A stretch of 64,000 nt of DNA from Escherichia coli (lineage in GTDB: Bacteria; Pseudomonadota; Gammaproteobacteria; Enterobacterales; Enterobacteriaceae), in the NCBI RefSeq assembly GCF_001677475.2, contig NZ_CP015229.1. The stretch is one strand, 5' to 3'. The notes under the pieces are model-generated. The model saw nothing but the letters and a program-made list of their open reading frames with translations, did not search any database and was not told the origin of the DNA. Below, one piece after another: positions 10,118-57,680 of this stretch. The translations under genes were made by a program, and so were the position numbers. The stretch's first letter is position 1. Each line of letters opens with the position of its first letter.

Positions 10118-10999
10118 TTAACGCGGTACATTCGCGGGATCGCAATAGTCCAGAAAGCGCCGTAGCGCGTTGGAAAGGTGTTTTTGCCGATGATGTATAC
10201 GCCACAACGTACGCATCAGGCGCGGCAGAGGGACCGCAACTTCACTTAATGTGCCTGCCTGCAATTGATCTTCAATCACCCGTCGCGACAGGCAACTAAT
10301 TCCCAACCCATGACGCACCGCATGTTTGATTGCCTCGGAGTTACCTAATTCCATCGCCATCTCAAACTTCGGTAAATGTGACAGCAACAGATAATCGACA
10401 ATCTCCCGCGTGCCGGAGCCGCGTTCACGCAGGATCCACGGCGCAGCGGCCAGCTGTTCTAAGGTGACCGGACCACGAGCCAATGGCGAAGTCGGCGCGG
10501 CGAAAACCACCAGCTCGTCTTCCAGCCACGGTTCAGAAATGATTTCAGTGCTGTGGCACGGTCCTTCAATAAAGCCAATATCAACGCGGAAATCCAGCAC
10601 CGCTTGCATCACGTCCTGGCTGTTCCCAACGCTAAGTTCAATCGGCAACTGCGGATAATCATGGCGATAACGGGCGATAACTGCAGGCAGAATGTAGTTA
10701 CCGATGGTACTACTGGCATAGATACGAATCGCGCCGTTGTCTTCGCGAAACAGTTGTTCGATTTCAACCGCCTGTTCAAGTAGTGCCAACGCACGCGGAT
10801 AGAGCAGCCGCCCGTGTTCATTAACAACTAGTCTTTTACCCACGCGATCAAACAATTGCACGCCAAGCTGCCCTTCCAGGTCGGTCAAGGCTGCGCTCAC
10901 TGCTGATTGCGACAACGCCAGCATCACCGACGCCTGGGTGGTTGATCCACTTTTCAATACTTCTGCAAAAACTTCCAACTGCCGGAGGGTGATGTGCAT
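10118..10999 (-). CDS. yeiE: LysR-type transcriptional regulator
   Basis: 293-aa ORF with N-terminal HTH ([24 protein letters not shown]) and LysR substrate domain; divergent from yeiH. Confidence 0.9.
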
Positions 11000-11097
11000 A
11001 GTCGCTTACCACTTATAAAGATTAATTATAAATATATAATCAATTTTATTTTTAAACCAGTTAGTCGTAACCTTATGCCCGGTTAAAGGAGAGGGTT

Positions 11098-12147
11098 ATG
11101 ACGAATATCACCTTACAGAAACAACATCGTACACTGTGGCATTTTATTCCGGGGTTAGCCCTGAGTGCAGTTATCACCGGGGTCGCCCTGTGGGGTGGTT
11201 CCATTCCCGCGGTTGCGGGTGCCGGGTTTAGTGCCCTCACCCTCGCAATCTTGTTGGGGATGGTTTTAGGCAACACCATCTATCCGCACATCTGGAAAAG
11301 CTGTGACGGTGGTGTGCTGTTTGCCAAGCAATATTTATTACGTCTGGGTATCATTCTTTATGGCTTCCGTCTGACGTTCTCGCAAATTGCCGATGTCGGT
11401 ATCAGTGGGATCATCATTGACGTGCTGACGCTGTCCAGTACCTTCCTGCTGGCTTGCTTCCTGGGGCAGAAAGTGTTTGGTCTGGATAAGCACACCAGCT
11501 GGTTGATCGGTGCCGGTAGCAGTATCTGTGGCGCTGCCGCGGTACTGGCGACTGAGCCGGTAGTGAAAGCGGAAGCCAGTAAAGTAACCGTGGCTGTTGC
11601 AACCGTTGTTATCTTCGGGACCGTCGCGATTTTCCTCTACCCGGCGATATATCCGCTGATGTCTCAATGGTTTAGTCCGGAAACTTTCGGTATCTACATT
11701 GGTTCTACTGTGCACGAAGTGGCGCAGGTGGTGGCGGCAGGTCATGCCATCAGCCCGGATGCAGAAAACGCAGCAGTTATTTCCAAAATGCTGCGCGTGA
11801 TGATGCTGGCTCCGTTCCTCATCCTGCTGGCGGCGCGTGTTAAACAGCTGTCTGGGGCGAACAGCGGCGAGAAAAGCAAAATCACTATTCCGTGGTTTGC
11901 CATCTTGTTCATCGTAGTTGCCATCTTTAACTCGTTCCACCTGTTACCGCAGAGTGTGGTGAACATGCTGGTAACGCTGGATACCTTCCTGCTGGCAATG
12001 GCGATGGCGGCGCTGGGTCTGACCACTCACGTCAGCGCGCTGAAAAAAGCCGGGGCGAAACCTCTGCTGATGGCACTGGTACTGTTTGCCTGGCTGATTG
12101 TTGGTGGTGGTGCGATTAACTATGTGATTCAAAGCGTCATCGCATAA
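11098..12147 (+). CDS. yeiH: UPF0324 inner-membrane protein
   Basis: 349-aa polytopic membrane ORF divergent from yeiE. Confidence 0.85.
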
Positions 12148-47539: not shown

Positions 47540-47616
47540 CGGCACGTAGCGCAGCCTGGTAGCGCACCGTCATGGGGTGTCGGGGGTCGGAGGTTCAAAT
47601 CCTCTCGTGCCGACCA
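47540..47616 (+). tRNA. proL: tRNA-Pro (anticodon GGG)
   Basis: CGGCACGTAGCGCAGCCTGGTAGCGCACCGTCATGGGGTGTCGGGGGTCGGAGGTTCAAATCCTCTCGTGCCGACCA; cloverleaf with GGG anticodon; encoded CCA absent. Confidence 0.9.
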
Positions 47617-47618
47617 AA
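47602..47618 (+). repeat. attL core (3' end of tRNA-Pro)
   Basis: CTCTCGTGCCGACCAAA, identical to the copy at 58597-58613. Confidence 0.8.
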
Positions 47619-47652
47619 TCGCCCACCGGAAAGCACCGAATAAGACAGGGAT

Positions 47653-47790: not shown

Positions 47791-47824
47791 AAAACCCTGT
47801 TTTTTCGTGTGGAATCATAGACAT

Positions 47825-49066
47825 ATGGCGAGAAAAACACCCCCATTAACCACAGTGCAGATCAAAGCAGCCAGACCAGCGCAAAAGGAGTACACCCTAC
47901 AGGACGGCGGTGGGCTTTTTCTCCTGGTAAAACCGTCCGGATCAAAACTCTGGCGATTTTCCTACTACCGACCATCGGACAAAAAAAGAATATTGCTGAG
48001 TTTTGGATCGCTTGAAGATGTTTCCCTGGCTGATGCCAGAAAACGCCGTAGCGAGTACAGGACGTTAATCAGTGCCGGAACTGACCCGCAGGACCATGAG
48101 AAGAAAAAACGAGAGGCAGAGGCCCGAAGACAAGGGAACACGTTCGAAAATGTGGCGGCGGCATGGTACCAGGTGAAAATCAGCCAGAATCTGGCCCCCA
48201 ACACGATTAAAGACATCTGGCGTTCGCTGGATAAATATGTATTCCCGTTCATCGGCAACACGCCAATAGATACCCTCACCGCTCGCCGCTTTGTTGAGAT
48301 ACTCACACCCATTAAAGCACGCGGCAACCTGGAAACTCTGAAACGCGTTTTACAACGCATCAATGAAGTGATGGATTTTGCTGCCAACAGTGGGCTGATT
48401 GACATCAACACCGCCGCGAACGTCCGCAAGGCATTCCCTTCCCCCACTAAAAAGCATATGCCAACCATCCGACCGGAACAGCTACCGCAGCTAATGCACG
48501 ATTTATCGGTCGCCAGCATAGAACGGCAAACCAGATTGCTAATCGAGTGGCAACTGCTGACCGTAGCACGCCCAGCCGAAGCAGCCGCCGCACGCTGGGA
48601 AGAAATAGATCTCGATGCCGAAACATGGACGATTCCAGCCGGACGCATGAAGATGCGCCGTGACCATGTGATCCCTCTTTGCGGTCAGGCGATAGCTGTA
48701 CTGGAAACAATGAAGCCAATCAGCGCACACAGGGAACATGTTTTTCCCAGCCTTAAAAATCCAATGCTGCCAATGAGCAGCCAGACCGCTAACGCTGCAT
48801 TGCGCCGGATGGGATACGCTGGTGTGCTGGTGTCTCACGGATTACGCGCCATATTCAGTACAGCAGCGAACGAGGAAGGATTCGAGCCGGACGTAATCGA
48901 GGCCGCACTCGCACACGTGGACACGAACGAGGTAAGGCGAGCATATAACCGAAGTAACTACCTGGAAAAGCGCGTGGTGCTTATGCGCTGGTGGGGGGAA
49001 TTTGTAGAGGCCGCAGCTACCGGAGTGACCATAGCCAGTGGTAAAAGGGGTATCCGTGCCGTGTAA
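47825..49066 (+). CDS. int: Tyrosine recombinase / integrase, P4-like (N-terminal DUF4102-type arm-binding domain)
   Basis: MARKTPPLTTVQIKAARPAQKEYTLQDGGGLFLLVKPSGSKLWRFSYY... with C-terminal catalytic region (HGLRA...RAYNRSNY); adjacent to tRNA. The GTG at 47807 is an alternative start. Confidence 0.85.
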   Translation: MARKTPPLTTVQIKAARPAQKEYTLQDGGGLFLLVKPSGSKLWRFSYYRPSDKKRILLSFGSLEDVSLADARKRRSEYRTLISAGTDPQDHEKKKREAEARRQGNTFENVAAAWYQVKISQNLAPNTIKDIWRSLDKYVFPFIGNTPIDTLTARRFVEILTPIKARGNLETLKRVLQRINEVMDFAANSGLIDINTAANVRKAFPSPTKKHMPTIRPEQLPQLMHDLSVASIERQTRLLIEWQLLTVARPAEAAAARWEEIDLDAETWTIPAGRMKMRRDHVIPLCGQAIAVLETMKPISAHREHVFPSLKNPMLPMSSQTANAALRRMGYAGVLVSHGLRAIFSTAANEEGFEPDVIEAALAHVDTNEVRRAYNRSNYLEKRVVLMRWWGEFVEAAATGVTIASGKRGIRAV

Positions 49067-49565: not shown

Positions 49566-49772
49566 GTGGAAACAATCAGAAAAATACTTACCCGTCAGGA
49601 AGTAAAAAATATTCTGCGCATCAAGGCAGACAGTTCGCTACAGGACATGATCAACGCCGGAAAATTCCCGAAAGGCTTCAAAATCGGTCTGCGTCGTGTT
49701 GGCTGGTATGAAGATGAAGTGCTGGCCTGGCTGAAAGAGCGCGAGGAAGAAGCGCGCGGAACGGCTGCGTAA
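49566..49772 (+). CDS. alpA: AlpA-family (HTH_17) transcriptional regulator / excisionase-like protein
   Basis: GTG start with GAGG SD; 68 aa, LTRQEVKNILRIKADSSLQDMINAGKFPKGFKIGLRRVGWYEDEVLAWL matches the AlpA/prophage CP4-57 regulator pattern. Confidence 0.8.
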   Translation: METIRKILTRQEVKNILRIKADSSLQDMINAGKFPKGFKIGLRRVGWYEDEVLAWLKEREEEARGTAA

Positions 49773-50335: not shown

Positions 50336-50433
50336 TTGAGGTTATCAAGGTGCATAAATGCAAAGCCCCGCAAGTGTCGTTACCACTCGCAGGGCTTCTA
50401 ACCACCAACGATAGCAGAAGTATCGAGGTAGCT

Positions 50434-50640
50434 ATGTTAAATCATACCACACACCCGCAAGGGCGGGACTCGCACAACCTGAATAAATACATCTGGCGTT
50501 TTATCGCTCTGAGCACGGCACAACCGCGCGTGATTACCATTGAGGCCACCAGCGAACAGGAAGCACGTCAGCAATCTCCTGATGGCTGCGTGATGGTATT
50601 CGCCGCCCGTATTCGTCAGGAGGTGCGCCATGTGCAATAA
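50434..50640 (+). CDS. Hypothetical protein (69 aa), first gene of the rightward operon
   Basis: ATG with GAGGT SD; stop overlaps the next start (ATG at 50630). Confidence 0.4.
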   Translation: MLNHTTHPQGRDSHNLNKYIWRFIALSTAQPRVITIEATSEQEARQQSPDGCVMVFAARIRQEVRHVQ

Positions 50641-51113: not shown

Positions 51114-51413
51114 ATGAAAAAGAAAAATTCTGGCTTTACTGCCAGTGGTCTCCCTCGGCCTGAAATCCGCCCCGGCGATATTTTCCGGGATAACTACGGC
51201 GGCACGGTAACGATTAAAAGTATTGCCGGACGGTGCGTTACTTACCGCCGTGATGGGTACAGCTACGACTGCGTGATGCCTGTTTATCAGTTCCGGCGTG
51301 ATTTTTCACTGATACAGGCCACACCACGCAAACAGCCCACCAGCAACGCAAAGGCACGGGCAAATATTCAGAAAATGAAAAACATGATTAACGCATTCAG
51401 GGGCACAAAATGA
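51114..51413 (+). CDS. Hypothetical protein (99 aa)
   Basis: GGAG SD; stop overlaps the pri start (ATGA). Confidence 0.45.
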   Translation: MKKKNSGFTASGLPRPEIRPGDIFRDNYGGTVTIKSIAGRCVTYRRDGYSYDCVMPVYQFRRDFSLIQATPRKQPTSNAKARANIQKMKNMINAFRGTK

Positions 51414-53215
51414 AACTGGCACCGAACTTAAAAAAACAGCCACACGACAAAATGACCGAAGTCATTATTTTTGCAGGTAGTGATGCCTGGGCGCACGCGA
51501 AACAGTGGCAGGAACAGGACGGGCGACTTGCTGGCGACAACGTGCCACCTGTATGGCTGGGAGACAGCCAGCTTGACGAACTGGCAGACCTGAAAATTAT
51601 CGACGATGGTCGCTATTGTGTCCGGCTGTACAAGGCAGGCCACATCAAGCCGTCAAATATTAATGCCATCGGGCAAAAGCTGGCGGCGGCAGGTGTACGG
51701 GATGCGAGATATTACCCTGAGGGAATGCACAGCCAGAAGCGGGAGGAGTGGCGCGAATATCTGGAGCGTGCGCGCCAGAATCTTTCTGATGGTCTGGTTA
51801 TTCAGCTTCCTGTTAAGAAAAAAACAGAAGACAGCGCCGCACCACTGGCGCTTAACCAGATGGGAGCAAGCCAGCGCGGCGAAGTTCTCCTGGCACGTTA
51901 TGGCGGCGAACTGGCAATTAATGCGGACTCTGACACCGTTCACCACTACAACGGCGTTGTATGGGAGCCGGTACAGGATAAAGAGTTACAGCGGGCTATG
52001 GCACAGATTTTTATTGATGCGGAGATCAGTTATTCGCAGAACGCCATCAAATCGGCGGTCGATACCATGAAGTTAAGTTTGCCCGTAATGGGGAATACCG
52101 CCCGTAACCTGATTGGATTCAGTAACGGTGTTTTTGATACCCGGACAGGCGATTTTCGGGAGCATGACAAAAACGACTGGCTGTTAATTGCCAGTGAATT
52201 ACCGTTCAGCCCGCCAGCAGAGGGGGAAACGCTGGCAACGCATGCGCCGAATTTCTGGAAATGGTTGCGCCGTTCGGTGGCAGAGAATGGCCGTAAAGCG
52301 GATCGCGTACTGGCGGCGTTATTCATGGTGCTGGCGAACCGATACGACTGGCAGTTATTTCTTGAGGTAACGGGGCCGGGTGGAAGCGGTAAAAGCGTAA
52401 TGGCGGAGATTTGCACCATGCTGGCGGGTAAGGCCAACACGGTATCGGCAAGCATGAAGGCGCTGGAAGATGCCAGGGAACGCGCGTTAGTGGTTGGCTT
52501 TTCGCTGATTATCATGCCGGATATGACCCGCTACGCTGGTGATGGTGCAGGTATTAAGGCCATTACAGGCGGTGACAAAGTGGCAATCGACCCGAAACAT
52601 AAAGCTCCCTACTCAACACGCATTCAGGCGGTCGTGCTGGCGGTGAACAATAACGCCATGTCATTCAGTGACCGCAGTGGGGGGATCTCACGTCGTCGGG
52701 TGATATTCAATTTTTCGGAGGTTGTACCGGAGAACGAACGCGACCCCATGCTGGCAGAAAAAATAGAAGGAGAGCTGGCGGTTGTGATTCGCCACCTGCT
52801 TACTCGTTTTTCTGACCAGGACAAAGCTAAACGCCTGCTGTATGAGCAGCAGAAATCAGAAGAAGCTCTGGTGATAAAACGCGAGGGCGATTCGCTGGTG
52901 GACTTCTGCGGCTATCTCATGTCGTCGGTAATGTGTGATGGTCTGTTAGTGGGTAATGCCGAAATTATTCCGTTCAGTCCGCGCAGATATCTTTATCACG
53001 CCTATCTGGCATATATGAGGGCACACGGATTCGGTAAACCTGTAACACTGACGCGCTTCGGTAAAGATATGCCGGGGGCAATGGCGGAATATGGCAGGGA
53101 GTATATGAAACGGAAAACGAAGCACGGTTTGCGTTCAAATGTGACCCTGACAGAGGATTCAGAAGACTGGATGCCATCATGTACATCGGTCACAAATGAC
53201 GATGGAAAAAATTAA
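51410..53215 (+). CDS. Replication protein: primase C-terminal-like / SF3-type helicase P-loop NTPase (satellite Pri-Rep)
   Basis: 601-aa ORF with Walker A TGPGGSGKS and a hydrophobic stretch ending in D (Walker B-like, VVGFSLIIMPD); immediately followed by an iteron-rich origin. Confidence 0.75.
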   Translation: MKLAPNLKKQPHDKMTEVIIFAGSDAWAHAKQWQEQDGRLAGDNVPPVWLGDSQLDELADLKIIDDGRYCVRLYKAGHIKPSNINAIGQKLAAAGVRDARYYPEGMHSQKREEWREYLERARQNLSDGLVIQLPVKKKTEDSAAPLALNQMGASQRGEVLLARYGGELAINADSDTVHHYNGVVWEPVQDKELQRAMAQIFIDAEISYSQNAIKSAVDTMKLSLPVMGNTARNLIGFSNGVFDTRTGDFREHDKNDWLLIASELPFSPPAEGETLATHAPNFWKWLRRSVAENGRKADRVLAALFMVLANRYDWQLFLEVTGPGGSGKSVMAEICTMLAGKANTVSASMKALEDARERALVVGFSLIIMPDMTRYAGDGAGIKAITGGDKVAIDPKHKAPYSTRIQAVVLAVNNNAMSFSDRSGGISRRRVIFNFSEVVPENERDPMLAEKIEGELAVVIRHLLTRFSDQDKAKRLLYEQQKSEEALVIKREGDSLVDFCGYLMSSVMCDGLLVGNAEIIPFSPRRYLYHAYLAYMRAHGFGKPVTLTRFGKDMPGAMAEYGREYMKRKTKHGLRSNVTLTEDSEDWMPSCTSVTNDDGKN

Positions 53216-53227
53216 ACTTATGGAATA

Positions 53228-53459
53228 ACTGTTCACCACTGTTCACCCTGTCATAAATGTCTTTTATATCAGTACATTATAGGGTGAACAGTTATTTGTG
53301 AACTGTTCACCAAACTATTCACTGTTCACCTTTTTGATTATTTATTGAGCTTTAAGGGTGAACAGTGGTGAACAGTTGGTGAATAGTTTTTGTGAAACTG
53401 TTCACCCCTTAACATCATGAATAAAAAGGGAAAATAGCAAAAGGTGAACAGGTGAAGAG
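53228..53459. repeat. Iteron-type replication origin: about 10 copies of ACTGTTCACC / GGTGAACAG in both orientations with AT-rich spacers
   Basis: CACTGTTCACCACTGTTCACC, GGGTGAACAGTT, GTGAACTGTTCACC, TTCACTGTTCACC, GGGTGAACAGTGGTGAACAGTTGGTGAATAG, GAAACTGTTCACC, AAGGTGAACAGGTGAAGAG. Confidence 0.75.
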
Positions 53460-53502: not shown

Positions 53503-53748
53503 GTGACAACGAAGCACGCAAAAAAACCACAATCACACGCCCTTGATTTGACAGAACACTGGCTGAGGGTGGCGATAAAAATCATCGACCGCAACGCGGG
53601 AGAAGGATACGCGAAAGCGCATCCCGAACTGATAAGCGCATTCATGACCACGGCGGCGGCAAATTTTGCCACACTGACAGAACGGGAGATTGCCGAAGCG
53701 GAACAGGTGACAACCATCAACGTTAAAACCGGAGAGCAGACAGCATGA
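53503..53748 (+). CDS. Hypothetical protein (81 aa)
   Basis: GTG start with GAGGT SD; overlaps the start of the next ORF. Confidence 0.4.
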   Translation: MTTKHAKKPQSHALDLTEHWLRVAIKIIDRNAGEGYAKAHPELISAFMTTAAANFATLTEREIAEAEQVTTINVKTGEQTA

Positions 53749-54044
53749 CAGCACAGATAGCGGCTTGCGGGCGGCTGGTGGCTGACCCGCAGTTAAAGAC
53801 CACCAGCAAAGGGACACAAATGGCGATGGCGAGTATGGCGGTTCCCCTGCCGTGCAGCCAGGCAGATGACGGAACGGCGACGATGTGGTTATCTGTCCTG
53901 GCGTTTGGCAGACAGGCCGACGCACTGGCAAAACACCACAAAGGCGAACTCCTGAGCGTGGCGGGTAACATGCAGGTGAGCCAGTGGACAGGCCAGAACG
54001 GCGCGACCGGGCGGCAAAAAAGGTCAACAGGGCCAGGCCACTGA
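53745..54044 (+). CDS. SSB-like OB-fold single-stranded DNA-binding protein (short form)
   Basis: IAACGRLVADPQLKTT...WLSVLAFGRQADALAKHHKGELLSVAGNMQVSQWTGQNG follows the SSB OB-fold pattern (GxL..DPEL... W..V.xFG ... KG..V.V.G.L....W). Confidence 0.55.
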   Translation: MTAQIAACGRLVADPQLKTTSKGTQMAMASMAVPLPCSQADDGTATMWLSVLAFGRQADALAKHHKGELLSVAGNMQVSQWTGQNGATGRQKRSTGPGH

Positions 54045-54322
54045 CGCACTGAACAGGGCAAAACAACAGTCAGGGAATGATGAACCGTACGGCGATAATA
54101 TACCGTTTTAAATTCTGCAAACAAAAAGATGCCGGAAAAAAATAGATTTTCCGGCATGCTACATAAATCCCGACCAAAGGAAGTAAATACATTAACACGA
54201 ATTATCAGCACTGAAGTTGTCACGGCATATTTTATACAACATTGCACTTGGTTGCATGTATTCGCATAGCAGACATCGGTAATAGAATATATTCACAATT
54301 ATTTGTAATGAATGTAAAGAGG

Positions 54323-55369
54323 ATGAGTATGGTTGATTTATATTCGCCTACACAGCTTGTGCAGGTGGCTAATGCTGAAGATGTGCAAAAAAAATTAAAT
54401 GCGTTGTTTACCAGTTTGTTTTTCACTCGCTCGGTAATGTTTGAATCGAGAGACATTATTCTTGATACGATCGACGATCCAAATATCCCGATCGCGGCGT
54501 TTTGCTCTCCTATGGTGGGCAGTAAAGTTTCACGAGATGAGGGATACGAATCAAAAACAATTCGCCCTGGCTATATGAAACCGAAAAGCAGTATTGATCC
54601 AAATAAGTTAGCTGTGCGCCCTGCTGGTGTATCACCTGAGCAATACAATGCTTTTGGGGCGCGTAATATTAAAGTTAAACAGGCGATTGTAAATCAGGCT
54701 AAAGCTATTCGTGCACGTATTGAATGGCTTGCTGTTCAGGCAATCACAACGGGGAAAAATATCATTGAGGGCGATGGTATTGAACGTTATGAGCTGGACT
54801 GGAATATAAAACCACAAAATATCATCACTCAGTCTGGCGGTACTGAGTGGTCAGGTAAGGATAAAGAAACTTTTGATCCAAATGATGATATTGAGAGCTA
54901 CGCAGAATTTAGTGAGGGCGTCACTAATATCATCATTATGGGTGGTAATGTATGGAAGAAATACCGTTCATTCAGAGCGATAAAAGAGGCTTTGGATACC
55001 CGTCGTGGTTCTAATTCCGAACTGGAAACGGCCCTTAAAGACCTTGGTGATTCGGTGAGTTTTAAAGGGTATATGGGCGATGTTGCGATTGTTGTTTACA
55101 GCGGGCGTTATACCGACGAGGACGGAACAGAAAAACATTTCCTTGATCCTGATTTGATGGTGCTTGGCAATACGGCTCTTCAGGGGATTGTCGCCTATGG
55201 CGGTATTCAGGATCCGGAGCTAATCCGAATGGGGCTGACTAAAGCCGAACTTGCACCGAAAAACTATATTGTGCCTGGTGATCCGGCTATTGAATATGTG
55301 CAGACACATTCAGCACCACAGCCAATACCGGCCCGCATCAATCGTTTTGTTACCGTTCGCATTGGCTAA
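54323..55369 (+). CDS. Major capsid protein, lambda gpE family
   Basis: MSMVDLYSPTQL... with NITQSGGTEWSGKDKETFDPNDDIESYA, DTRRGSNSELETALKDLGDSVSFKG and GDVAIVVYSG, matching lambda E as recalled from memory (start may be the ATG at 54329). Confidence 0.8.
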   Translation: MSMVDLYSPTQLVQVANAEDVQKKLNALFTSLFFTRSVMFESRDIILDTIDDPNIPIAAFCSPMVGSKVSRDEGYESKTIRPGYMKPKSSIDPNKLAVRPAGVSPEQYNAFGARNIKVKQAIVNQAKAIRARIEWLAVQAITTGKNIIEGDGIERYELDWNIKPQNIITQSGGTEWSGKDKETFDPNDDIESYAEFSEGVTNIIIMGGNVWKKYRSFRAIKEALDTRRGSNSELETALKDLGDSVSFKGYMGDVAIVVYSGRYTDEDGTEKHFLDPDLMVLGNTALQGIVAYGGIQDPELIRMGLTKAELAPKNYIVPGDPAIEYVQTHSAPQPIPARINRFVTVRIG

Positions 55370-55378
55370 GGGGGAGCA

Positions 55379-55720
55379 ATGGCTACTCATTACACTGAAC
55401 TCATGTCTGGCACTGAAGCACTGGTTACTACGCTGGGGATATTTTCAGCCAATAAAGGGGTAATACCTGCGTTTACGCCACTGATGCAGGAAGATGCAAC
55501 TGGTGCGCTAGTGGTATGGGATGGAACGAGCGCAGGCAAAGCGGTTTATGTTTCCGCTGTACAAATCGACACAGCGAAAAAAACACAGGCACAGGTTTAT
55601 AAGACAGGTGTTTTAAATGTTGATGCTCTGAACTGGCCTGAGTCTGTAAAAGAACTGTCGGCAAAGGTTGCCGCGTTTGTTGGCTCAGGTATTTCTGTTC
55701 AGCCGCTGGCTCGTGTGTAA
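55379..55720 (+). CDS. Head decoration protein, lambda gpD family
   Basis: 113 aa; TPLMQEDATGALVVWDGTSAGKAV...YKTGVLNVDALNWPE...AAFVGSGISV parallels lambda D as recalled from memory. Confidence 0.75.
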   Translation: MATHYTELMSGTEALVTTLGIFSANKGVIPAFTPLMQEDATGALVVWDGTSAGKAVYVSAVQIDTAKKTQAQVYKTGVLNVDALNWPESVKELSAKVAAFVGSGISVQPLARV

Positions 55721-55731
55721 AGGGGGATACA

Positions 55732-56115
55732 ATGCAGAATCATTACAATGACCTTAAGCCAATTGCCGAAATGATGTATCCGGATCCAGCAGTAGAGGAA
55801 TTAAAGGCTATTGCTGACAAAATGCGTTTAAGTGAACGCCTTGTTGATATGAATCAGGTGATGGAACTTACTACCCTTAGCCGTCGCACATTGCTAAACC
55901 TTGAGGCTCGCGGAGAGTTCCCCGAACGCGTACAGGTTACGGAAGGGCGTAAGGCCTGGTATTTAAGTGAAGTGATCGACTGGATAAACAATATTCCTCG
56001 AGCTTCTGAATATTGCCGCGTACCTGTCCCAAAAAAGCCAGATGCGGCGCTATGCCTCAAGATTGAGCGTGTACGTCGCAATGCACGGGATGGTCGCTAT
56101 AAGTTGATTGGTTGA
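55732..56115 (+). CDS. AlpA/HTH_17-family DNA-binding protein with N-terminal extension
   Basis: LVDMNQVMELTTLSRRTLLNLEARGEFPERVQVTEGRKAWYLSEVIDWINN matches the AlpA-type HTH pattern; lies directly upstream of cos. Confidence 0.55.
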   Translation: MQNHYNDLKPIAEMMYPDPAVEELKAIADKMRLSERLVDMNQVMELTTLSRRTLLNLEARGEFPERVQVTEGRKAWYLSEVIDWINNIPRASEYCRVPVPKKPDAALCLKIERVRRNARDGRYKLIG

Positions 56116-56140
56116 TGAAATTAGGGCCCGTTCTGGCTGG

Positions 56141-56215
56141 CGGGTCCTTTCCGGCGATCCGGTAGGCTACGGGGCGGCGACCTTGCGGATTTTCGCTATT
56201 TATGAGCCTTTTCGG
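56141..56215 (+). other. Lambda-type cos site (cosQ-cosN plus conserved flank)
   Basis: CGGGTCCTTTCCGGCGATCCGGTAGGCTACG|GGGCGGCGACCT|TGCGGATTTTCGCTATTTATGA; the 12-nt GGGCGGCGACCT (56172-56183) equals the lambda cohesive end as recalled from memory. Confidence 0.75.
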
Positions 56216-56316
56216 GTTGGTGGTGGTGGTTTTGTTTTTCGCTCTATCTCTATGAATAAAAAGGGAAAGATAACACCAACACACCAACCTGAAACCTTAA
56301 CTAAGTGGGGATATTG

Positions 56317-56859
56317 ATGAAATCGCACCTGATGAACAAAAAAACTATGGCGCAAAGCTGCCGCGTAAGTGCGACAGCGTTCGACAAGTGGGGAGTAACT
56401 CCCGTTGAGCGTAAAGGCCGTGAGGCGTTTTATGATGTTGCCAGCGTGATAGACAATAGGGTTAACAATGCAATTAACCAGCTTACAAACGACAAAGGCG
56501 AGATTGATGATGATGAACTTTTACGCGTAAGAATCAGATTAATGACGGCCCAGGCGGAAGCGCAGGAACTTAAAAACGAGCGCGAACGCGGCGAGGTGAT
56601 TGATACAAAGTTTTGCATCTACGCGATTTCAAAACTGGCGAGTCAGATTTCATCAATCATGGACAGCCTCCCGCTCACAATGCAAAGGCGCTTTCCCGAT
56701 ATAAGGCCGTATATGCTGGATGAACTAAAAAGGGAAATAGCCAAAGCATGTAACGCATGTGCAAGACTTGACGAAAACCTGCCACAGATACTGGCTGATT
56801 ACCTGATGGAAACTACCGGAAGCGCGCCTGAGAAGTTGCTACAGAACAAAGGCGAGTAA
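56317..56859 (+). CDS. Terminase small subunit, lambda Nu1 family (no large subunit gene follows)
   Basis: RLMTAQAEAQELKNERERGEVIDTKFCIYAISKLASQISSIMDSLPLTMQRRFPD and C-terminal LKREIAKACNACARLDENLPQILADYL match lambda Nu1 as recalled from memory; gene sits about 135 bp downstream of cosN. Confidence 0.75.
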   Translation: MKSHLMNKKTMAQSCRVSATAFDKWGVTPVERKGREAFYDVASVIDNRVNNAINQLTNDKGEIDDDELLRVRIRLMTAQAEAQELKNERERGEVIDTKFCIYAISKLASQISSIMDSLPLTMQRRFPDIRPYMLDELKREIAKACNACARLDENLPQILADYLMETTGSAPEKLLQNKGE

Positions 56860-56932: not shown

Positions 56933-57214
56933 ATGACAGAAGCCGAAATACTGCGATTAATCCGCCGCGTTACCGGAATCAGCCAGCAGGCTGACGAACA
57001 GGCCACGCAGCCGGACAGCGTGACCGCTGAAAATTATGTGCGTGTTGTTGCTGAGGTGATGCGCCGTGATGGTATTGAGCTTAACGGCGTGGATATGCGC
57101 AACATACGAACAAGAGTCCTTGAGTTGCTGGCATACCGTCGCCGGATACAGACGTACAGGGAAAAAGCCAAAATAACGTACCAGTGGAAGAAGCCGGAGC
57201 GGTTACGGCGGTAA
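56933..57214 (+). CDS. Hypothetical protein (93 aa)
   Basis: ATG ORF downstream of terS-like gene; Arg-rich C-terminus; no recognised motif. Confidence 0.4.
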   Translation: MTEAEILRLIRRVTGISQQADEQATQPDSVTAENYVRVVAEVMRRDGIELNGVDMRNIRTRVLELLAYRRRIQTYREKAKITYQWKKPERLRR

Positions 57215-57235
57215 CTTGCTGAACTTAAAGCATAA

Positions 57236-57333
57236 TGGAAATTTGCACTCTGGCCTAACCCGTTAATATTTCAGCAAAGTGCAAATTTGCGTTCTGTAGC
57301 TGGTGGCTGGCAGAATGTAAATTTACATTCTGG
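57236..57333. repeat. Three related palindromic sites sharing an AAATTT core and ending in TTCTG or CTCTG
   Basis: GGAAATTTGCACTCTGG (57236), GTGCAAATTTGCGTTCTG (57279), CAGAATGTAAATTTACATTCTGG (57311; 20-bp perfect palindrome). Confidence 0.6.
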
Positions 57334-57337
57334 TGAT

Positions 57338-57637
57338 TTAATCATCTGATTTACCCAGCCCGTACCGGATTACCGTACAGTGAGCGCCATCGCTACCGAT
57401 ACGCACATCAAAGCGGGGTTCGCGCACTTTCACGCGGTACAGGATCCCATCATTTACCATAGCGTTTAACGTTCGTCGGGTTGCCTCTATGTGGTATCGC
57501 TGATATTCGGAACCATAGAGCAGCAATGTAACACCACGAACATCAAATGGTGGTTCTCCAGCCTCCACCCGCACCCAATCGCGATACTCAGGTTTGTAAA
57601 GTTCAAGAATCTGTTTTTTGTGCCTGGTCATTCTCAT
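57338..57637 (-). CDS. Hypothetical protein (99 aa), reverse-oriented accessory gene
   Basis: ATG preceded by AGGA SD 7 nt upstream; MRMTRHKKQILELYKPEYRDWVRVEAG...; no recognisable family. Confidence 0.5.
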   Translation of the reverse strand: MRMTRHKKQILELYKPEYRDWVRVEAGEPPFDVRGVTLLLYGSEYQRYHIEATRRTLNAMVNDGILYRVKVREPRFDVRIGSDGAHCTVIRYGLGKSDD

Positions 57638-57680
57638 GTGTGATTCCTTATTGTGGGACAGTACTGTCATACAATAAGCT

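Follow-up and report, generated by a model that had tools for sequence, protein, structure and literature searches.

Lambda-type capsid and decoration genes in a tRNA-Pro phage-inducible chromosomal island of Escherichia coli and their relatives in other satellites

In Gram-negative hosts, phage-inducible chromosomal islands (PICIs) often carry genes for virion proteins, and a capsid gene, present in 21 of the 29 reference Gram-negative PICIs surveyed by Mageeney et al. 2023 (PMC10111431), is their commonest late gene. The model island in E. coli is EcCICFT073, in which Fillol-Salom et al. 2018 (PMC6092414) reported a capsid gene (c1499) and a head decoration gene (c1500). Deletion of either gene neither relieved the interference of the island with lambda nor caused a transfer defect, and the DNA packaged by EcCICFT073 was all phage-sized; similarly, Dokland 2019 (PMC6893505) noted that the island has a capsid homologue, yet gives capsids of normal size with lambda. 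The 2018 study also mentions a subgroup of E. coli PICIs that encode their own small terminase subunit (TerS), none of which had been characterized with a working helper. Here we analyze a homologous pair of genes (hereafter E and D, after lambda gpE and gpD) in a 64,000-nucleotide stretch of an E. coli chromosome (contig NZ_CP015229.1; hereafter the window), where they lie in an 11-kb cos-type Gram-negative PICI inserted at a tRNA-Pro gene.

The existence of such genes is not in itself a discovery. An earlier reading of the same DNA, made from the letters alone (the original prediction), had left it possible that E/D-type capsid genes were new to cos-type E. coli PICIs, a possibility overtaken by the 2018 report of c1499 and c1500. 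That these islands carry lambda-type E and D genes is already published and in RefSeq, and finding it again adds nothing new: the window E protein is 100% identical to an NCBI entry named 'major capsid protein [Escherichia coli]' (cluster P0001, 643 member sequences), and of the 5,426 complete E. coli genomes, about 365 contain the E–D DNA at 95% identity or more, with the genes annotated as 'major capsid protein' and 'head decoration protein'. A search of the literature for later work on the function of PICI E and D genes gave nothing past the 2018, 2019 and 2023 papers. What the present analysis contributes concerns the ancestry of the pair, the slot in which it sits and the reach of the published null results.

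The E and D genes and their lineage

The first of the two open reading frames (ORFs), both on the plus strand, encodes at full length a major capsid protein of the lambda gpE type, and the second a decoration protein of the gpD/SHP type. The original prediction had placed both ORFs at these positions and in these families, and the profile and structure comparisons that it had proposed as a check lead to the same assignment (Pfam, PHROG, PDB and Foldseek). E matches the Pfam family Phage_cap_E (PF03864) with an E-value of 3.4e-41, residues 14–345 falling on positions 4–327 of the 329-position model, and the major head protein family PHROG 29 with 2e-89. Among PDB sequences the top match is 3BQW (1e-121), a 'putative capsid protein of prophage' from strain CFT073 released in 2008, while lambda gpE (7VI9) aligns over residues 7–347 with 9e-78. 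When placed in the CFT073 genome, the gene behind 3BQW proves to be the EcCICFT073 capsid gene, followed by the decoration gene, a 137-aa ORF, a 144-aa ORF (RppA) and a 93-aa ORF, beside phoQ. An AlphaFold model of E (predicted template modelling score, 0.83) was matched by Foldseek to 3BQW and to the crystal structure of lambda gpE (7SJ5) with template modelling scores of 0.90 and 0.87, respectively. D matches the Pfam family HDPD (PF02924; 2.7e-15), the head decoration family PHROG 49 (1e-26) and, among PDB sequences, the SHP protein of phage 21 (1TD0; 2.8e-16) and lambda gpD (1.3e-12). No NCBIfam model matched E, D, TerS or the helix-turn-helix (HTH) protein encoded after D.

Of the short motifs on which the original prediction had relied, DTRRGSNSELETA, GDVAIVVYSG, TPLM, WDGT, YKTG and WPE are all present, whereas the first one reads NIITQSGGTEWS in the window, the version quoted earlier (NITQSGGTEWS) being the lambda spelling. 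E, which ends at 55369, more probably starts at the ATG at 54329 than at the alternative ATG at 54323: the former is better spaced behind the sequence AAAGAGG, and the RefSeq relatives are annotated from the equivalent codon. D begins nine bases past the E stop and has a ribosome-binding site of its own (GGGGGAG).

Comparison with phages and other satellites sets this pair apart. Of 50,697 phage records, none comes closer to the window E than lambda E itself (42.5% identity), and a search of 5.8 billion proteins divided the E homologues into two clean clusters, a lambda-like one and a satellite clade of 44 sequences that are 50–100% identical to the window E and 40–47% identical to lambda E. 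Twelve genomic contexts were examined for the satellite clade, from E. coli (four different att sites), Salmonella, Serratia, Edwardsiella, Lelliottia and L014, a Logan read-run assembly; every one of them is an island of the type int-alpA-replicase-(ssb)-E-D. E precedes D in all twelve, and the order is reversed in lambda, in the helper prophages of CFT073 and Edwardsiella and in a lambda-like metagenome contig. The E proteins of satellites and of the phages living beside them are no closer: c1499 is 45% identical to the E protein of CFT073 phage 4, a proven helper, and in Edwardsiella the satellite E shares 46% identity with that of the prophage hosting the island. An identity to phage or helper E of at most 46–47%, an inverted gene order and a clade common to several genera argue that the satellite E and D genes are not recent captures from helpers. 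To judge from these comparisons they constitute an old lineage, restricted to satellites and spread across the Enterobacterales, which is a new result of this analysis.

The genes of this lineage are maintained under strong purifying selection and are not decaying. The ratio of nonsynonymous to synonymous substitution rates (dN/dS) of E is 0.06 between the window and its closest relative (L001) and 0.085 between the window and L009 (dS 1.29), giving a reported span of 0.06–0.09, and that of D is 0.06. E aligns end to end with lambda gpE, with 53 columns at least 95% conserved and common to both clades, and the position of lambda W308, the residue mutated in the gpE crystal form 7SJ5, is always occupied by W or Y. 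The mutation reportedly abolishes self-association of gpE. Together, purifying selection and the aromatic residue kept at this position lend indirect support to the idea that the island E can assemble into an icosahedral shell.

The two proteins also appear to have changed in step. E and D are always found together in the satellite islands. Satellite D proteins carry an N-terminal motif (M..PY..L.AGT) and a C-terminal one (SVQPL), both of which phage D proteins are without, and E has two segments, residues ~130–150 and 314–346, in which the satellite clade is conserved yet unlike the phages. In the E model the first covers the spine helix in its C-terminal half and the hairpin that follows, and the second the C-terminal strands. 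Following the HK97-fold convention, we take both to belong to the P-domain, close to the three-fold positions that gpD occupies in lambda, and they may be linked to D binding. The patterns in the two proteins look like signs of co-evolution, and the N-terminal arm motif of the satellite D suggests a cognate binding site on the capsid.

Recent recombination with a phage was considered as the source of the lambda-like motifs in E and rejected, as no exact nucleotide match to lambda E exceeds 16 nt and the similar patches are columns conserved throughout the family. Separately, a 4,432-nt metagenome scaffold (L012) joins portal-C-D-E in a lambda-like form (98% identity to lambda), within the conserved DTRRGSNSELETA stretch of E, to a window-type E C-terminus, a satellite D and the HTH gene (96% identical to the window); this junction is either a natural phage–satellite recombinant or an assembly chimera. 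Two further database proteins (P0005 and P0077, of 463 and 470 aa, each from one short contig) combine Phage_cap_E and HDPD in a single chain and may be E–D read-through fusions or sequencing errors.

The island and its capsid slot

The window has the gene content of an E. coli-type chromosome (yejK-yejL-yejM-tRNA-Pro ... yejO-narP-ccmH), and the island occupies 10,995 nt between direct repeats of the tRNA-Pro 3' end (Table 1). Its genes run in the order int, alpA, Icd-like, DUF4222, primase, iterons, a small conserved ORF, ssb, E, D, HTH, cos, TerS, the 93-aa ORF and the PerC-like gene. In agreement with the earlier view of a cos-type satellite, the element has the hallmarks of Gram-negative cos-type PICIs: a size within 10–15 kb, att repeats, int beside attL, alpA, a primase with iterons downstream, and a helper-type cosQ-cosN with an island-specific cosB. 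The iterons are likely to be the origin of replication (ori), their place agreeing with that of ori in Gram-negative PICIs (PMC6092414). Compared with lambda, the cos site is identical at 26 of 30 nt on the left, at all 12 positions of cosN and at 29 of 35 nt on the right, and diverges from +48, in the cosB zone. Downstream of cos, where EcCICFT073-like islands have Rpp, lies a different gene. An assignment of its product as Rpp was rejected, since the 180-aa protein is homologous to Nu1 over its full length (37% identity with the lambda protein, residues 3–180) and has no similarity to CFT073 RppA; no PDB sequence matched it at E<0.01. The window island is therefore best placed in the TerS-bearing subgroup of PICIs.

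Table 1 Features of the island and its surroundings in the window
Feature	Position	Strand	Evidence
tRNA-Pro (GGG) gene (47540–47616) with attL; repeat copy 47598–47625	47540–47625	+	ARAGORN, Rfam tRNA, repeat D5
Tyrosine integrase, P4-type (int)	47807–49066	+	PHROG 1 integrase, 2e-71; integrase annotation in RefSeq relative
alpA-type HTH regulator	49566–49772	+	PHROG 66 and 2790; same gene in L001 and L002
Icd-like cell-division inhibitor gene	50386–50640	+	NCBIfam NF033153, 1.6e-19
DUF4222 gene (51114–51413) and D5-type primase/replicase (51410–53215)	51114–53215	+	PHROG 285; PHROG 864 DNA primase, 4e-190
Likely ori: AACTGTTCACC iterons downstream of pri	53227–53410		Repeat families D2 and D6
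ssb, broken by a 56-nt deletion with frameshift	53745–54111	+	PHROG 44; alignment to intact 423-nt ssb of L001
E, major capsid protein, lambda gpE family, satellite lineage	54329–55369	+	Pfam, PHROG, PDB, AlphaFold/Foldseek
D, head decoration protein, gpD/SHP family, satellite lineage	55379–55720	+	Pfam, PHROG, PDB
Second AlpA/excisionase-like HTH gene, moves with E–D as one cassette	55732–56115	+	PHROG 2790, 1.8e-48
Lambda-type cos site; cosN GGGCGGCGACCT at 56172–56183	56142–56218	+	Exact cosN match
Full-length Nu1-type TerS; longest ORF from 56305	56317–56859	+	Pfam Phage_Nu1, 2e-22; PHROG 57, 6e-53
Conserved 93-aa gene (PHROG 1561)	56933–57214	+	84% identical to gene after rppA in EcCICFT073
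Accessory PerC/ANR-like transcriptional activator gene	57681–58052	+	PHROG 994, 10396 and 1324; segment absent from L001
attR, repeat of tRNA-Pro 3' end	58593–58620	+	Repeat D5, 86% over 28 nt, 17-nt exact core

E and D come without genes for a portal, protease or scaffold, as had been noted from the start, and without one for a large terminase: tblastn searches of the whole 64-kb window with A, W, B, C, Nu3, FI and FII of lambda and with the EcCICFT073 c1501 protein returned nothing, and by the same searches there is no helper phage inside it. Portal, large terminase subunit (TerL) and tail, for none of which the island has a gene, would thus have to be borrowed from a helper, as originally proposed. 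Among the island ORFs there was no PHROG match to the P4-like satellite genes Sid, Psu and Delta, only the integrase type and the D5-like primase being common to P4, and no PHROG or Pfam match to the portal, protease, head-tail connector, TerL and HNH genes of capsid-forming PICIs (cf-PICIs). The small conserved ORFs of the island (81 and 93 aa) gave no informative matches. The only Rfam hit within the island is the tRNA (microRNA and snoRNA matches scored far under the gathering thresholds), and neither a terminator-like hairpin at 54129–54157 nor the promoter-like sites near E stand above chance.

The alignment of the window with a second island at the same tRNA-Pro site and with the same backbone (L002) marks out the stretch that holds the pair. 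Homology between the two stops where ssb ends, at window position 54111, and resumes at 56169, which is three bases ahead of cosN. Between these points the window carries E, D and the HTH gene (54112–56168), and the other island has a 637-aa fusion of a ClpP protease and a major capsid protein (L002:9663–12267) instead. The capsid slot between ssb and cosN is thus exchangeable between otherwise like islands, which is likewise new here. The HTH gene that follows D is present in four relatives (L001, L003, L009 and L010) and absent from two (L002 and L006).

Other members of the satellite clade carry additional head genes. The island of Lelliottia sp. SL45 (L013:4117–4518 and 10409–11752) has a 447-aa gpC-like S49 peptidase gene after E–D, whose product matches scaffold and 'capsid assembly' families in its C-terminal part, and a head-closure Hc1-like gene adjoining alpA. 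In CFT073, the product of the 137-aa ORF after c1500 (L011:2084–2497), which from the gene numbering we infer to be c1501, matches the C-terminal part of the head maturation protease family PHROG 53 (1e-8) and is 37% identical to residues 416–493 of the gpC-like S49 peptidase of the helper (E 2e-10); on these alignments it is a gene resembling the C-terminus of a scaffold. As a separate observation, a lambda I-like tail assembly gene and a gene with an Abi_C domain follow the E–D module in L014 (10367–12090).

Three peculiarities are found elsewhere in the island. The 56-nt deletion in ssb shifts the reading frame and removes the acidic C-terminal tail, which may impair this copy of the island. 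The accessory segment of ~1.2 kb at 57219–58440, absent from the closest relative (L001), contains the PerC/ANR-like activator gene and an overlapping 142-aa minus-strand ORF without matches. Finally, attR and the PerC-like gene are separated by a stretch that includes ~13 units of a GGCT tetranucleotide repeat (58164–58217), which might vary in phase.

Possible roles of the satellite E and D proteins

The explanation that we favor, with a probability of roughly 0.45, is that E and D are working shell proteins that are redundant with those of the helper under laboratory conditions and confer a conditional advantage in nature. Upon helper induction, the island would excise, replicate and express both genes. 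E, alone or mixed with helper E, would then assemble on the helper portal, with the scaffold and protease of the helper, into lambda-size T=7 shells. The Nu1-like TerS would bind the island-specific cosB and bring helper TerL to the lambda-type cosN, allowing a concatemer of about four island copies (4 × 10,995 = 43,980 bp, 91% of the lambda genome) to fill the head, and trimers of the cognate D would lock the expanded shell. In the laboratory, helper E and D would do the same job and the island genes would look dispensable, whereas in nature the conditional advantage would be enough to keep them under selection. The strongest argument for a structural role of E is that the seemingly co-evolving cement protein D is always retained with it: in lambda, a cement protein is useful only on an expanded, DNA-filled shell. 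The phage-sized DNA packaged by EcCICFT073 is consistent with T=7 heads.

Several points weigh against this explanation. The islands with c1499 or c1500 deleted, and the one with c1499::cat, match or exceed the parent in transfer (PMC6092414), and of the EcCICFT073 genes located after ori that were cloned singly, none but c1503 had an effect on lambda plaque formation. A sequence identity of 42–45% leaves co-assembly with the E protein, scaffold and portal of a helper unproven, and the tblastn searches found no scaffold homologue belonging to the window island itself. Moreover, a second E-family gene is present in four of eight sampled genomes with the window allele, and 54% of all genomes have at least one E-family gene, so co-residence with a lambda-type prophage is not obviously enriched. 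The clean transfer of the mutant islands implies that any role of E and D must be conditional or quantitative. A deletion mutant without a transfer defect, one arm of an outcome that the original prediction had listed as speaking against it (the other arm being particles with only helper capsid protein), is what the c1499 and c1500 deletions gave.

The reach of these published results deserves a closer look. The deletions were tested in a marked island written c1501::tetA, the other marked island named there being c1499::cat (PMC6092414), and the helpers were lambda, phi80 or CFT073 phage 4 (PMC6092414). If the scaffold-like 137-aa ORF is c1501, every marked EcCICFT073 that is named has a lesion inside the head module, and the tests of both deletions were probably done with c1501 interrupted. 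The tested c1499 is, furthermore, only 55% identical to the window E.

These circumstances also underlie a related explanation that we regard as possible, yet clearly weaker. Together with the scaffold-like or gpC-like gene found in some relatives, the E/D lineage would build a shell of its own on a stolen helper portal, which would make these islands a stage between classical and capsid-forming PICIs, possibly with another capsid size when the natural helper is present; the insertions in the head module (c1501::tetA and c1499::cat) would, along with helper redundancy, explain the published nulls.

A small or remodelled capsid had been the suggestion of the original prediction, and it has fared poorly in the sole published tests of this family, against the phage-sized DNA and the unimpaired transfer reported for EcCICFT073 and its c1499 and c1500 deletions (PMC6092414). 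In its specific form, in which E with D would act like Ccm of SaPIbov5 and bias assembly on the helper portal toward small shells holding one or two island copies, thereby shutting out the helper genome, we consider it unlikely. There is precedent, as Ccm, a capsid homologue, makes small capsids and PmCI172, which makes small capsids, encodes such a homologue (PMC6092414 and PMC6893505); the divergence of the window allele from c1499, the markers placed inside the head module in the named constructs and the lack of TerS-type islands characterized with a working helper all leave room for it. Nevertheless, EcCICFT073 gave only phage-sized DNA with lambda (PMC6092414 and PMC6893505), deletion of c1499 or c1500 did not relieve interference (PMC6092414) and the sequence indicates no size determinant. 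By our own arithmetic, based on T-number scaling, a single 11.0-kb copy would moreover under-fill a T=4 lambda-like head of ~17–21 kb.

Slightly less probable is that the divergent proteins act as an anti-phage interference device or decoy, poisoning the assembly of non-helper lambdoid phages or engaging host systems that sense capsids, to the benefit of host or island. Interference with phages is common among PICIs (PMC6092414), and the deep divergence from phage E could render mixed lattices defective. However, c1503 was the only one of the singly cloned post-ori genes to lower lambda plating, plaques were not restored by deleting c1499 or c1500 (PMC6092414), and a poison would need neither a co-evolving cement protein nor conservation over its full length.

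Mageeney et al. 2023 (PMC10111431) described helper-embedded PICIs, most of them inserted in E, B, C or A, and proposed a role for captured late genes as backup copies, which for E and D would be of use mainly to islands that interrupt the head genes of their helper. One island of the satellite clade is of this kind: L004 of Edwardsiella tarda, with a satellite-type E–D pair, lies within the portal gene of a lambda-like prophage, its E 3.5 kb from that of the helper. We find this role improbable for the lineage as a whole, given an identity of at most 46% to co-resident helper E, the inverted order and the spread of the clade across genera, and the window island is inserted at a tRNA gene rather than in a prophage. 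Least probable is that the pair is a relic without function, left by a phage or by an ancestral capsid-forming PICI, an idea that the silent EcCICFT073 deletions (PMC6092414) and the broken ssb of the window copy might favor, but that is at odds with a dN/dS of 0.06–0.09, with ORFs intact in the ~365 E. coli genomes and in several genera, and with the kept pairing and order.

Comparison with known systems

The puzzle that emerges is that hundreds of genomes keep an old, apparently satellite-only E/D pair under strong purifying selection even though its deletion from the model island has no visible effect. The leads offered by the present comparison are a lineage that does not look like a recent capture from helpers, a capsid slot beside cos that is exchanged between otherwise identical islands, and published nulls that probably came from islands with an interrupted head module. 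Classical PICIs could still prove to contribute shell proteins to their particles.

EcCICFT073 has E and D genes of the same satellite clade, E then D directly upstream of cos, and shares int, alpA, replicase, cos and the 93-aa gene with the window island. The two nevertheless differ in many respects: the proteins are only 55% (E) and 54% (D) identical, D is followed in EcCICFT073 by the scaffold-like c1501 and in the window by the AlpA-like HTH gene, RppA is replaced by a full-length Nu1-type TerS, and the att site is beside phoQ in one and at tRNA-Pro in the other. With lambda gpE and gpD and phage 21 SHP, the window proteins share Pfam families, fold, end-to-end alignment and near-invariant residues, and the island shares the lambda-type cosQ-cosN; in contrast, identities are 42% for E and 35–40% for D, the gene order is inverted, the island is without B, C/Nu3, W, FI, FII and A, and the E segments assigned by convention to the P-domain, together with the D termini, are clade-specific.

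Among satellites, the cf-PICIs (EcCIEDL933; Alqurainy et al.) likewise combine a PICI backbone with a capsid protein of their own, but their genes also cover portal, protease, connectors, HNH, TerS and TerL, and the small capsids are of their own making, whereas the window island has only the TerS of this set. The helper-embedded PICI 11capE (PMC10111431) also possesses an E-family capsid gene and is integrated within the E gene of its helper, unlike the window island at its chromosomal tRNA gene. SaPIbov5 Ccm and PmCI172 are further examples of a homologue of the helper major capsid protein encoded by a satellite. Ccm is ~23% identical to the capsid protein of its helper and demonstrably yields small capsids (PMC6893505), while the window island adds to the capsid protein a decoration protein that is its likely cognate partner.

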